Origin: an archaeon
GTDB lineage: Archaea > Nanobdellota > Nanobdellia > Woesearchaeales > GW2011-AR9
Direction: 5' to 3'
Assembly: GCA_023259115.1 (NCBI GenBank)
Contig: JAHFQW010000004.1
Span: 12,768 to 76,767 of the forward strand
Length of the DNA: 64,000 nt
The notes below the pieces were generated by a model, which saw only the letters and a program-made list of their open reading frames with translations, was not told the DNA's origin and searched no databases. Below are positions 24,999-27,900 of this stretch, in pieces (position 1 is the stretch's first letter; each line of letters opens with the position of its first letter). The position numbers and the translations under genes were made by a program.

Positions 24999-27900
24999 CT
25001 ACACATCTAAATTCACAACTTCATGCGCATGCTTCTCAATAAACTCTCGACGTGGTTCTACTTCATCACCCATTAATATCGTAAACATCTGATCTGCCGC
25101 AATCGCATCTTCAATCGCCACTTTCTTAAATGAACGAACAGTTGGATCCATTGTCGTCTCCCACAATTGTTTTGCATTCATCTCCCCAAGCCCTTTATAG
25201 CGCTGAATTGTAAGCCCATCCATTCCCCCAAACTCTACAACCATCTTATCCTTCTCTGCATCACTATACACATACTCCACTCTCTTACCCTTCTGTAATC
25301 TATATAGTGGCGGCATCGCCACATACACATGTCCCCCCTCGATTAACGGTTTCATATATCTATAAAAGAACGTCAACAATAAAGTCATAATGTGCGAACC
25401 ATCCACATCCGCATCAGTCATAATAATCACTTTATCATATCGCAGCTTCCCAATATCAAACTCCTCACCCACACTCGTACCCAGCGCCATAATCATCGCA
25501 ATAATCTCCTTATTCTCCATAATCTTATGCAATCGCGCCTTCTCCACATTCAAAATCTTTCCTCGCAGCGGCAGAATCGCTTGAAACTCTCGACTGCGGC
25601 CTTGTTTTGCACTATTATGGACAAATATCCCAGATGCCAACGCAAAATTATGAGTTCCGGGTACTTCTAAATCATACACATCTATCTGTTCATCTAAATA
25701 ATAAACCGCTTTCACTTTATGATTATAGCTCATCACCGCCTCAGTTAAAAACCCATCATCATTACTAAAGAATCTGGAAACAAAAGTATCATAAGACAAA
25801 ACATTGGGATTTTTCATCTCTTTTCGAAGCCGCTCAAATTCATTCTTATCAGCCATAGAGCAATGATCATACACTTTTCGCAACACTTTTATGGTACTCT
25901 CAAAATAGGTTTTATCATACGCTTCTTTACGTTTTAATCTAAATTCATCCGTCCACTGCTCTTTGGTTTTTTCTTTTCTCCATTCCTTCAAGTGATCATT
26001 TGTCCACTGCTCCTTAGCTTTAATAGATAAAAACTCTTTTCTTTCTGGATTTTTCTCGAAAAATGCGGTGACACGTTTTGACTGCTCTTCTCGATGTTCC
26101 AAAGAGCCCCAATATCTCTGTTGAGCTTCATTTAATTTTTTCAAAGACACCTTGCGATATTCTTCATTCTCAGAATAAAATGTTAAAAACTTCTCAACCA
26201 TATACTTTTTATATTCTTCATTTTCCCATTGTGCTTTGGCACGAACACTCAGCTCCTCTCTAATCGCTAACATCTTCTGCCTAATCTTCTCTTTGAATTC
26301 AGGCATTTGGCGTATGTAACGTAATTTTGCCAGTACTTCCAGACGAGAAAAATTCTGTTCTGCCAATAATGCATGCAACGCCAAATGCTCTTCCTTTGTT
26401 AAACGACAAATATTATTTGGATTATTATTTAATTTGTTAAAATCTTTATGATGTCTATGACTCCCCTCTACTTCTAAATAAACTCCTCGGTGTAAATTAT
26501 ACTTATCCGCTAACATATGGGTAAATATCCAACGTTGTTGTGAGGAATCAAACACTAATTCATATCCTTCTATCGTTATCCTCTTTCCCTTGCGCGAAAT
26601 TTGCCTATATAAAGGCATTAAAGAGTCATCTTCTTTAAGTAAATGAGCTTGTGTATACGTACCATCTCTCCTCATAAACAAATGATTCGGCGTACAAACA
26701 ATCTCCTCGTTATTATCCAATACCACTTTAATAACAGAAACACGTTCATTAGTTTTTCGTGGAGAACTAATTTTTTGTATACCCACAGCCCCATCATCCA
26801 AAATAGTATAACAATAATTTTCCTTACCTCGTTTATCTTCATCAATCAACTCCAAAAAACTCAAATGACGACCATCAGCTAACGCAACTCTCGTATCTCC
26901 TGAAAAACAACCCCCCGCCGAATCTCCTTCCACAATGTAAATCTCACACAATTTAGGATCTTTATTACTACAATCCGCCAACTTTCCCGGTAACCCCGCC
27001 CCATCCAGCGCCCCTTTACGTCGTGTTAAATCCCGCGCTTTACGTGCCGCTTCTCGTGCTCGTGCCGCATCAATACATTTCCCCACAATCATCTTAATTG
27101 TTTGTGGATGCTCCGCAAAATAGGTAGTCAACTCATCATGCGTAATCGAACTCACAATACCAAACACATCGCTGTTGCCCAATTTTGTTTTCGTCTGTCC
27201 TTCAAATAACGGCTCCTGCACTTTTACCGACACCACCGCAACTAAACCCTCTTTCACATCATCTCCCGTGAGCTTAATCTCTTCTTTCGTATTCACATCT
27301 TTGAGCGCCGTATTAAGCACCCGCGTTACCGCCGTCTTAAAGCCAGACAAATGCGTTCCCCCCTCAATCGTATCAATATTATTCACATACGAAAACACAT
27401 TCTCCTGATAACTCGAATTATATCGCAATGCTATTTCTAAAACCACATTATCTTTCGTCTTCTCAAAATAAATCACTTCATGCAAAGGAACCTTATTTTT
27501 ATCCACGAATTGCACAAACTCTTTGATCCCCCCATCATACTTAAACACTTCTTTCTTATTCTCTTCTCGTTCATCAATCAACTCAACCTGTATTCCTTTA
27601 TTTAAAAACGCCAATTCCCGCAACCGTTTGGCCAACACATCATAATGATACACCGTCTCTAAAAAAATCGTACTATCCGGCTTGAATTTCACCGTCGTAC
27701 CCCTCTCCGTCGTATCCCCAACCACTCTCAACTCGTCCAACGCATTGCCGCAAGAATAATGTTGAACATGTATTTTTCCATTACGGCTCACCCTCACTTC
27801 TAGTTCAATAGAGAGCGCATTCACAACACTTAAACCAACCCCGTGCAACCCACCCGACACTTTATAGGTATCTTTGTCAAACTTCCCCCCCGCATGCAGC

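Follow-up and report, generated by a model that had tools for sequence, protein, structure and literature searches.

A predicted class 1 intein with an HNH-type nuclease, of a widespread family, in the GyrB of a DPANN-type archaeon

The intein in the gyrase subunit B of the cyanobacterium Synechocystis sp. PCC 6803 (the Ssp GyrB intein) is 435 aa long and is a standard protein-engineering tool; its HNH endonuclease is said to have been identified by Dalgaard and colleagues in 1997. An HNH intein was reported in 1997 (Dalgaard et al., as cited in later papers). Both the Ssp GyrB intein and an endonuclease-deleted mini-intein splice in Escherichia coli (PMC3620165), and its C-intein ends in GVFVHN, followed by Ser-Ala (PMC2794532). 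Among the His-Me finger nucleases, group 22, named "Gyrase subunit B intein / dCTP deaminase intein" and assigned to Pfam HNH_3, was represented by 84 bacterial and 7 archaeal sequences, 91 in total (Jablonska et al., 2017; PMC5714182). Soucy et al. (2014; PMC4071816) described a gyrB intein allele shared by 6 Halobacteria, 19 Bacteria, most of them cyanobacteria, and a single further euryarchaeon.

Here we describe a similar insert in the gyrB gene of a DPANN-type archaeon. It was found in a stretch of 64,000 nucleotides, referred to as the window. The features of the locus are as follows.

24999..28286, minus strand: gyrB precursor ORF, 1095 aa from the listed TTG start.
26910..28286, minus strand: N-extein, aa 1-459, with the ATPase, the transducer and the first part of Toprim, ending in EGDSAGG.
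25614..26909, minus strand: putative class 1 intein of 432 aa (Cys1 ... His431-Asn432, then Ser+1), from HMMs, AlphaFold2 and Foldseek.
26871..26909, minus strand: splicing block A, 13 residues, with Cys1 as the predicted nucleophile, from TIGR01445 and the invariance of Cys1.
26676..26702, minus strand: splicing block B, IVCTPNHLF, with TxxH (Thr73-Pro-Asn-His76), from the alignment of homologues.
26349..26579, minus strand: predicted HNH (His-Me finger) nuclease domain, intein aa 111-187, with the core motif at 26370-26462, from PHROG, the model and conservation.
25725..26348, minus strand: predicted all-helical Lys/Glu-rich region, intein aa 188-395, from both models, the repeats and conserved Trp.
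25614..25724, minus strand: splicing blocks F and G, 37 residues (Asp413, His431, Asn432), from TIGR01443.
24999..25613, minus strand: C-extein, 204 aa plus stop, with Ser+1 (codon 25611-25613), AKQGR, the remaining Toprim and the GyrB C-terminal domain.

The identity of the gene is supported by NCBIfam TIGR01059 (958 bits, cut-off 882) and by the Pfam domains HATPase_c, DNA_gyraseB, Toprim, and DNA_gyraseB_C. Translation could plausibly begin at an in-frame ATG at 28259 instead of the listed start; the stop codon TAG occupies 24999-25001. Database protein P0121 matches the precursor except for the start residue. On the plus strand, the interval 25614-26909, for which the initial annotation had named no strand, is full of stops, and the plus-strand ORFs of 61-92 aa within gyrB were dismissed as antisense by-products. 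No tRNA and no Rfam family was detected in the window.

The minus-strand translation of the insert is unbroken over 432 aa, from CFSGDTRV to GIFVHN, and stays in frame across both junctions, in agreement with the initial annotation, which had proposed an intein at exactly this position. The residues named there as its boundaries, a Cys at the start, His-Asn at the end, and a following Ser, can be read directly from the translation. Three profiles exceed their cut-offs: Pfam Intein_splicing (70.5 bits, cut-off 35.8), TIGR01445 for the N-terminal splicing region, covering intein residues 1-79 (39.9 bits, cut-off 24.5), and TIGR01443 for the C-terminal splicing region (33.9 bits, cut-off 15.6). 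The alignment of homologues adds invariant residues in every block: C1, across 34 intein homologues, in block A; T73 and H76 in block B; and V411, D413, T419, N421, H431, and N432 in blocks F and G. The AlphaFold2 model of the intein has a mean pLDDT of 87.3 (93-96 in the splicing parts), and Foldseek with this model yielded 37 PDB matches at E<=1e-3, the listed ones all being intein, Hint or BIL domains; the best are intein/Hint splicing domains such as 1zd7 and 2imz. At the level of sequence, the search against PDB chains gave a sole weak match, to the C-terminal part of the Pho RadA intein. The Pfam and NCBIfam matches to DUF7647, CatA-like and UFD1_N2 were far under their cut-offs and were taken as noise from the Lys/Glu-rich helices. 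By its profile matches and predicted structure, the insert is a canonical class 1 intein with a Hint fold, at the EGDSAGG/SAKQGR site of Toprim (slashes mark splice junctions). The Toprim profile picks up at its position 13 right behind the insert, at precursor residue 892, and the exteins spliced in silico are 75-88% identical to intein-free GyrB proteins. The profile scores and the resumption of Toprim exclude a chance resemblance.

The split of EGDSAGG-SAKQGR at the usual GyrB insertion point, also claimed at the outset, is shared by all homologues with parsed junctions. The EGDSAGG/C...HN/S site is identical in 34 of 34 full-length protein homologues, the insertion site is the same in all 73 GTDB-set sequences with parsed junctions, and the junction ...SAGG/C...HN/S(A/S/G/C)K is common to both of these sets and to each of the 59 parsed metagenome loci. 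The protein homologues are 360-435 aa long (all but three 429-435 aa) and share 44-62% identity with intein residues 1-432; 62% is not an upper bound, because the proteins listed by the first homologue search ended at about 750 aa and did not include the one from the window itself. The metagenome loci reach 72% intein identity, the closest copy found, and copies on other Woesearchaeota/Nanoarchaeota-like contigs are 60-72% identical to the window's intein, forming its sub-type. At least 564 GTDB species representatives encode a relative, and the best 80 of these relatives are near-full-length and 50-65% identical. Named hosts are mostly DPANN archaea and Patescibacteria, while the matches also include a cyanobacterial GyrB (Waterburya) and a Halobacteriales GyrB. 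Related copies also occur within GyrA, within a T4-like portal protein, and within an AAA protein.

One claim of the initial annotation did not survive this comparison, namely, that an HNH intein is uncommon at this site. All full-length inteins recovered at the gyrB site (424-436 aa) are of the HNH type, making it the standard form, as also indicated by the HNH_3 group of PMC5714182. Since the family has long been known and is very widespread, the window's intein is a routine find. We assign it with high confidence, if short of certainty, to the known gyrB HNH-intein family of the Ssp GyrB type, and its host to DPANN archaea that are Woesearchaeota- or Nanoarchaeota-like.

The Ssp GyrB intein and the window's copy share the host protein and the junction type; the Ssp end GVFVHN/SA is the consensus of the recovered family and the window's copy ends in GIFVHN/SA, a comparison based on the last six intein residues and the +1 and +2 extein residues. 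The deletable central endonuclease of the Ssp GyrB intein mirrors natural mini-inteins in relatives of the window. By contrast, its host is a cyanobacterium, whereas the window's 432-aa intein comes from a DPANN-type archaeon. His-Me group 22 likewise has an HNH_3-type nuclease within a GyrB intein, with the window's copy also matching PHROG HNH families; the 91 sequences of that survey compare with at least 564 GTDB species and 489 clusters of the nuclease part at 50% identity now, and the window's copy is a putative member of the group. The paper on the shared allele (PMC4071816) includes neither DPANN or candidate-phyla hosts nor the nuclease type, while the hosts named for the relatives found here are mostly DPANN archaea and Patescibacteria.

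The gene could in principle be a pseudogene or a variant with a permanent, unexcised insertion, or the junction could be an assembly chimera. Such an explanation draws only on general caution, as the window comes from a metagenome-type assembly, and we regard it as very improbable: the frame is intact over both junctions, all splicing blocks are present, and the architecture recurs at this very codon in hundreds of genomes. Moreover, an unspliced insert would split Toprim between EGDSAGG and SAKQGR, and no second gyrB was seen within the window. The 1095-aa GyrB precursor is present on two contigs in a public collection. On the one that was readable, a 5.9-kb ENA metagenome contig, gyrB is nucleotide-identical, which makes a local artefact of sequencing or reading frame unlikely; the initial annotation had named a reading-frame or assembly artefact among the outcomes that would refute it.

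In place of LAGLIDADG blocks, the insert was said to carry an HNH motif and a long Lys/Glu-rich helical region, and both descriptions hold. The HNH string of 29 residues corresponds to intein residues 151-179. The best PHROG match, phrog_7545 "HNH endonuclease", covers residues 111-187 (E 2.6e-9) and is followed by further HNH matches to phrog_15471 (E 4.8e-5) and phrog_21964 (E 6.5e-5). Pfam HNH_3 (PF13392) gave 18.6 bits (E 0.0015), under its gathering score of 24.8, and the claim of an HNH type therefore rests on other evidence. Across the family, 11 of 34 members match HNH_3 at E<0.01 (best 4.5e-5), the PF13392 label is precomputed on two homologue matches, and related inteins score over the cut-off, with 39-75 bits.

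In the predicted structure, the nuclease region forms a beta-beta-alpha unit with a strand at 151-154 (His153-His154), a second strand at 167-170, preceded by Asn162 and Asn166, and a helix at 172-187 (His175, His179). The family-invariant HNH residues are H153, H154, N162 (one of the paired Asn161/162), N166, H175, and H179. In the BFVD fold search among viral proteins, nearly all matches are HNH or homing endonucleases, many of them aligned over 70-100 residues. With the nuclease-only model, Foldseek yielded nothing significant in PDB and did not retrieve I-HmuI (1u3e), and the profile of the HNH region matched no solved structure among PDB sequences. On the strength of the PHROG matches, residue conservation and the model, the endonuclease part of the intein is of the HNH type. 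A LAGLIDADG nuclease was rejected, as there was no family match in Pfam or NCBIfam at E up to 1 and the model consists of beta-beta-alpha and helices. Inteins with such nucleases (PI-PfuI, 1dq3; Tli/Pho VMA, 7qss/7qst) share with the window's copy the Hint fold and the life style, and their fold matches to it run via the splicing domains; their nuclease is unrelated, since the insert does not model as the LAGLIDADG alpha-beta fold.

The AlphaFold2 helices extend over intein residues ∼172-393. This region contains at least three repeats resembling LSxxAKxQWxNxEYK, centered at Trp228, Trp267, and Trp302; profile-profile repeat detection relates the first repeat to the third with a probability of 96.8% (E 2.7e-10) and to the second with 81%. 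Across the family, W228, W310, and W319 never vary, and W267 and W302 come close to invariance. Pfam detected neither NUMOD nor HTH in the region, and no PDB fold matched it; recognition of the DNA target by the endonuclease is presumed to reside here. A comparable arrangement is that of free-standing HNH_3 homing endonucleases such as I-HmuI (His-Me group 2), which also combine a beta-beta-alpha-metal nuclease with a separate extended DNA-binding region, both predicted in the window's copy. The nuclease described here, however, lies in frame inside a Hint domain, and its presumed DNA-binding part consists of the helical Trp repeats, lacking NUMOD and HTH matches.

Protein splicing by the textbook four-step scheme would apply to the gyrB intein as follows. 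Translation would yield the 1095-aa precursor with its catalytic Toprim motif split by the insert. A thioester would form at Cys1, the N-extein would be moved onto Ser+1, and cyclisation of Asn432, aided by His431 and residues of blocks B and F, would release the intein. The O-to-N shift would then leave an ordinary GyrB of ∼650 aa with the restored EGDSAGG-SAKQGR. The freed intein would be a two-part homing endonuclease combining HNH cleavage with helical recognition. In its beta-beta-alpha-metal unit, His154, paired with His153, is the probable general base, Asn162 and Asn166 may be structural, and His175 and His179 may serve the metal; the Trp-repeat array most likely recognises the empty gyrB site. 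An intein-less allele would be cut and repaired from an intein-bearing copy, and the element would thereby be copied.

The intein keeps 116 of 117 family-conserved columns (conserved in at least 90%); it therefore probably splices and may still home. We consider that the insert is very probably a splicing-competent member of the family and, with less confidence, that its nuclease is more likely than not still active. In the searchable papers, we found no demonstration of DNA cleavage by any gyrB HNH-intein nuclease. Mean pairwise identity across the family is 0.55 for the nuclease, 0.44 for the helical region, and 0.58 for the N-terminal Hint part. The nuclease part is thus as conserved as the splicing part, from which we infer selection for nuclease function in the family.

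The three allele states of the site are seen among close relatives. The 120 closest GyrB proteins comprise 105 without an intein, 6 with full inteins (including the window's own), and 9 with HNH-deleted mini-inteins. In a relative with 87% identity and conserved gene order (L082), the site is empty and reads GAAGGAGATTCGGCAGGGGGG directly followed by TCGGCGAAACAAGGTCGT. The intein-free alleles that the initial annotation suggested looking for in related genomes are thus common, and the distribution of the intein among relatives is patchy. Furthermore, intein identity is decoupled from extein identity among the hosts. Compared with other intein-bearing gyrB loci, the N-extein is 43-81% and the C-extein 46-84% identical; a relative with 81% extein identity has an intein of 53% identity, while hosts at 49-52% extein identity have inteins of 61-64%. 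GC3 is 0.31 in the intein versus 0.43 and 0.45 in its own exteins, and only ∼1.2 SD under that of the window's genes. The nearest intein homologues are too diverged for dN/dS, as synonymous sites are saturated. A phage as carrier of this copy finds no support, since phage genomes contain only remote intein relatives, 26-35% identical.

These data bear on two further explanations. The intein could splice while its HNH nuclease is inactive; it would then be a copy that has reached fixation, decays slowly at a late stage of the homing cycle, and is kept only since imprecise loss would kill gyrB. Mini-inteins that have lost the HNH part, seen at this site in close relatives, mean that decay occurs in the lineage, HNH_3 is sub-threshold in this copy, and, because the closest copy among those searched is only 72% identical, recent mobility, and in particular a very recent transfer, is unsupported. 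Against this, the ORF has no frameshift or stop, all invariant HNH and Trp-repeat residues are kept along with nearly all conserved columns, and the conservation of the nuclease part is that of a domain under selection. A decayed nuclease is, in our judgment, unlikely, though it deserves serious weight. Alternatively, the intein may have been co-opted as a conditional switch, so that splicing, and with it gyrase, answers redox state, temperature or the binding of the nuclease domain to DNA, to the benefit of the host rather than of a selfish element. The insertion inside the catalytic Toprim motif, due to which the precursor must be inactive until spliced, would suit such a role, and the clustering of inteins in replication proteins has been discussed as possibly functional (PMC4760082). 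Still, the 105 intein-free GyrBs among the 120 closest mean that the intein is dispensable; a selfish element is what the patchy distribution, the mini-inteins, and the discordance between intein and extein agree with; and the sequence offers no hint of a sensor. We find a switch improbable. The preferred reading remains a splicing intein with a nuclease that is likely still active, and the condition of the window's copy is, as far as its sequence goes, compatible with an active element.

As the intein type, the site and the HNH nuclease have all been published, and relatives occur in hundreds of genomes, the discovery value is small, and the side observations (family scale, the three allele states, intein/extein discordance, and Trp repeats) would not surprise a specialist. 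For annotation, the 1095-aa gyrB deserves the label "intein-containing", with a mature gyrase subunit of ∼650 aa. For those seeking DNA-binding scaffolds, a conserved Trp-repeat helical domain without a structural match is of modest value. Modest, too, is the value for intein ecology, which lies in how large the family is among DPANN and candidate-phyla genomes; useful are also the empty, full and mini alleles at one site in close relatives and the hosts that are ∼50% identical in GyrB with inteins more than 60% identical. We tentatively raise a stronger, rather doubtful joint possibility: that this copy is currently active in a lineage moving between distant hosts, possibly across the boundary between bacteria and archaea among small-celled groundwater DPANN and Patescibacteria, and that its Trp repeats form a never yet characterised target-recognition module to which no solved structure is related. 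Should both hold, the family would provide a new, programmable-looking scaffold for DNA recognition and a means to trace gene flow between the domains.

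The gyrB gene, on the minus strand, is a single open reading frame of 1095 aa spanning 28286 to 24999. The whole protein is identified as DNA gyrase subunit B (NCBIfam TIGR01059, 958 bits) and contains the Pfam domains HATPase_c, DNA_gyraseB, Toprim, and DNA_gyraseB_C. Read on the reverse strand, 25614-26909 encodes an open segment of 432 aa, CFSGDTRV...GIFVHN; the plus-strand reading of this interval was rejected, its translation being full of stops. Directly after the insert, the Pfam Toprim profile picks up again at its position 13, and therefore the insert splits the catalytic Toprim motif, exactly at the point and coordinates proposed in the initial annotation, with the gene on the minus strand. 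The same protein is recorded on two contigs of a public collection (P0121), the start residue, an artefact of TTG translation, being the sole difference; the contig that was read, a 5.9-kb ENA metagenome contig, carries a nucleotide-identical gyrB. The surrounding genes (SMC, Kae1/TsaD, ZPR1, split RpoB, RpoA', and AlaRS) point to an archaeon, and the closest exteins, that is, the GyrB parts flanking the insert, are labeled Woesearchaeota or Nanoarchaeota.

The insert is an intein. The Hint splicing blocks, for which an HMM check had been proposed, were recovered by three profiles, all above their curated thresholds: Pfam Intein_splicing (70.5 bits, cut-off 35.8), TIGR01445 (39.9, cut-off 24.5), and TIGR01443 (33.9, cut-off 15.6). 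In the alignment with 33 homologues, Cys1, Thr73 and His76 of block B, Asp413, His431-Asn432, and Ser+1 are all invariant. An AlphaFold2 model with the same alignment as input has a mean pLDDT of 87.3, with 93-96 in the splicing halves. It yielded 37 Foldseek matches in PDB at E≤1e-3, the best of which are all intein or Hint domains (Ssp DnaE 1zd7, Mtu RecA 2imz, Npu DnaE 4kl5).

The assignment of the nuclease to HNH, not LAGLIDADG, made in the initial annotation, is sound. By the Pfam cut-off alone, the protein would not be placed in HNH_3, as residues 150-176 score 18.6 bits, under the cut-off of 24.8. PHROG "HNH endonuclease" families match residues 111-187 (E 2.6e-9, 4.8e-5, and 6.5e-5), HNH_3 is matched at E<0.01 by 11 of the 34 family members and scores 39-75 bits in more distant intein relatives of the nuclease, and the Pfam scan of the window protein gave no LAGLIDADG family match. 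Both predicted models have strands at 151-154 and 167-170 and a helix at 172-187, with His153-His154 on the first strand, Asn162 and Asn166 ahead of the second, and His175 and His179 on the helix; all six residues are invariant in the family, and their predicted layout is the beta-beta-alpha-metal arrangement. Sequence searches of PDB found no solved structure related to the nuclease part, and a Foldseek search of PDB with the nuclease-only model (pLDDT 91) gave no significant match, two of the five weak ones being His-Me nucleases. Among predicted viral structures, the nuclease fold best matches an intein-like Hint protein from Bacillus phage SP-15 (E 3e-6), followed at ranks 2-50 by proteins that nearly all bear HNH or homing endonuclease names, each with a modest E (0.01-0.08) across 70-100 residues. 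The evidence from predicted folds is supportive, not decisive.

Residues 188-395 are all-helical in both predicted models and carry at least three copies of an LSxxAKxQWxNxEYK-like motif around Trp228, Trp267, and Trp302 (probabilities of 96.8 and 81% in profile-profile comparison); Trp310 and Trp319 are conserved, too. This is likely a target-recognition region, since in other HNH homing endonucleases a small nuclease is coupled to an extended part that binds DNA.

The window intein has no stop or frameshift and agrees with the family at 116 of the 117 columns conserved at ≥90%, the exception being Asn54 for Lys. Mean pairwise identity in the family is 0.55 for the nuclease and 0.44 for the helical region, similar to 0.58 for the N-terminal splicing half, which argues for selection on the nuclease across the family. 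Given this conservation and the intact frame, splicing is very likely, and the nuclease is likelier to be active than not.

Class-1 intein splicing is textbook chemistry, which we apply here by inference. An N-S acyl shift at Cys1 would be followed by trans-esterification of the N-extein to Ser+1, cyclization of Asn432 aided by His431 and block B and F residues, and an O-N shift yielding mature GyrB with an unbroken EGDSAGGSAKQGR motif. The helical repeats of the free intein would bind an uninterrupted gyrB sequence, the HNH site would then cut or nick it, and repair off the intein-bearing copy would duplicate the element.

Intein-free alleles in related genomes, suggested initially as a check, are abundant. 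In a search with the window exteins joined in silico, 105 of the closest 120 GyrB proteins (75-88% identical) are uninterrupted at the site, six, including the window's own, have a full intein of 432-434 aa, and nine carry mini-inteins of 141-173 aa at the same codon. These mini-inteins match the window intein in both of its splicing halves (53-73% identity), and the parts they lack are exactly the HNH and helical regions. The most similar GyrB (P0122, 87% identical) is intein-free, has the same gene neighborhood (Kae1 ... gyrB ... 78-aa gene ... SMC), and its empty site reads GAA GGA GAT TCG GCA GGG GGG / TCG GCG AAA CAA GGT CGT.

Intein similarity does not track host similarity. The correlation is rho 0.14 (p 0.23) for 73 GTDB-set sequences, chosen beforehand for intein similarity, and rho 0.60 for 59 metagenome loci. 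The closest intein-bearing exteins (81%) contain a 53% identical intein, while hosts with GyrB only 49-52% identical carry inteins of 61-64% identity, exceeding their far more constrained exteins. GC3 shows a mild compositional contrast: 0.31 in the intein, 0.43 and 0.45 in its own exteins, and 0.39 ± 0.07 in other window genes. The allele, similarity, and GC3 patterns show a family that has undergone gain, loss, and lateral movement. A recent move of the window intein is not indicated, as the nearest copies, from JGI metagenomes, are only up to 72% identical.

Several other features of the window were noted, some of them around gyrB:

24563-24596 and 28460-28493, plus strand: 34-nt direct repeat (91% identical) on both sides of gyrB
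23366-24247, minus strand: class II aldolase-like ORF whose GC3 is very low (0.25) and whose C-terminal tail is hydrophobic and rich in Cys
23081-23317, minus strand: 78-aa ORF between gyrB and SMC, without a family match
58103-60832, minus strand: 909-aa ORF with serine hydrolase (alpha/beta hydrolase), histidine phosphatase, and FtsY/SRP54-type GTPase in one frame
28491-30628, plus strand, and 2423-4390, 35109-36650, and 919-2178, minus strand: sizeable ORFs (89-655 aa) without a Pfam match at the thresholds used

The 27-nt core of the repeat, AAAAACAAACAGAGRAAAACAAAAATG, occurs at two places only in the window, where chance would give 0. Both copies terminate in an ATG, the right one opening an 89-aa ORF (28491-28760), the left one only a 22-codon ORF. 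The repeat, absent from L082, the contig of the 87%-identical relative with conserved gene order, may be a shared leader, a shared promoter, or the scar of a duplication. L082 has a dCTP deaminase (DCD) gene in place of the aldolase-like ORF, and therefore the spot adjoining gyrB is variable. It also has a 78-aa gene in the same position (8740-8976); by size and position, the 78-aa ORF appears to be a genuine, conserved small gene. The 909-aa fusion is unusual for an SRP receptor, and sizeable ORFs without Pfam matches are typical of DPANN genomes.

The nuclease part alone retrieved 489 clusters (50% identity) at E≤1e-3, and all nine sampled lie inside inteins by Pfam scan, the recognized hosts being GyrB, GyrA, a T4-like portal protein with several inteins, and an AAA protein. 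Intein_splicing is recognized in four stretches of the 2383-aa T4-like portal protein P0289, which also matches HNH_3 strongly (74.9 bits); this phage protein bears multiple inteins, and its nucleases are relatives of the gyrB intein nuclease. Relatives in phage genomes are remote ones only. On a Pacearchaeota contig (L076), gyrA (5883-8267, running off the contig end), downstream of an intein-bearing gyrB, contains an HNH intein (about 6378-7553) that is 33% identical to the window intein over the full length; its site, HGQGNFG/C...VHN/SMDGD, is a few residues ahead of the active-site region AASRYTE. Several intein-bearing gyrB have C-extein ORFs much longer than the usual 200-250 aa: 891 aa in L035 and 772 aa in L066, where the C-extein alignment restarts about 1.8 kb downstream, and 333-383 aa in L022, L032, L061, L063, L064, L077, and L080. 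Such lengths suggest further insertions in the GyrB C-terminal part, possibly second inteins.

The initial annotation called an HNH intein at this GyrB site uncommon, which does not hold, given at least 564 relatives in a scan with one genome per GTDB species and precedents in the literature. Nearly all of the best 80 of these cover residues 1-432 at 50-65% identity. Archaeal hosts named in the scan are Woesearchaeota, Nanoarchaeota, Pacearchaeota, Micrarchaeota, Methanosarcinales, and Thermoplasmatota, and other hosts include many Patescibacteria, Omnitrophota, Cytophagales, and Planctomycetes, the names being MAG labels that need care. Searched against proteins, the intein had 1293 matches at E≤1e-3; among those listed, 34 span the whole intein at 44-62% identity, values that are not upper bounds, since no listed protein exceeded about 754 aa and full-length precursors that the extein search recovered, among them the window's own (1095 aa), were missed. 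Nearly all of the 34 inteins are 429-435 aa long, and all are inserted at EGDSAGG/C...HN/S.

Later papers credit Dalgaard et al. in 1997 with in-frame HNH inteins. The HNH intein of 1997 is reported to be the Synechocystis GyrB intein. Group 22 of the His-Me finger nucleases, placed under HNH_3, is named "Gyrase subunit B intein; dCTP deaminase intein" and counts 84 bacterial and seven archaeal sequences (Jablonska et al., 2017, PMC5714182). A gyrB intein allele is common to Halobacteria, another euryarchaeon, and 19 bacteria, most of them cyanobacteria, and so crosses domains (Soucy et al., 2014, PMC4071816), and 33 bacterial GyrB inteins have been counted (Novikova et al., 2016, PMC4760082). 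In protein engineering, the Ssp GyrB intein of Synechocystis is a standard tool; it tolerates deletion of its endonuclease domain, and both the mini-intein and split forms splice in E. coli (PMC3620165). Its C-terminal piece, GVFVHN followed by Ser-Ala (PMC2794532), is the consensus of the family recovered here. The window intein is a new member of this well-known intein family, from an under-studied group of hosts.
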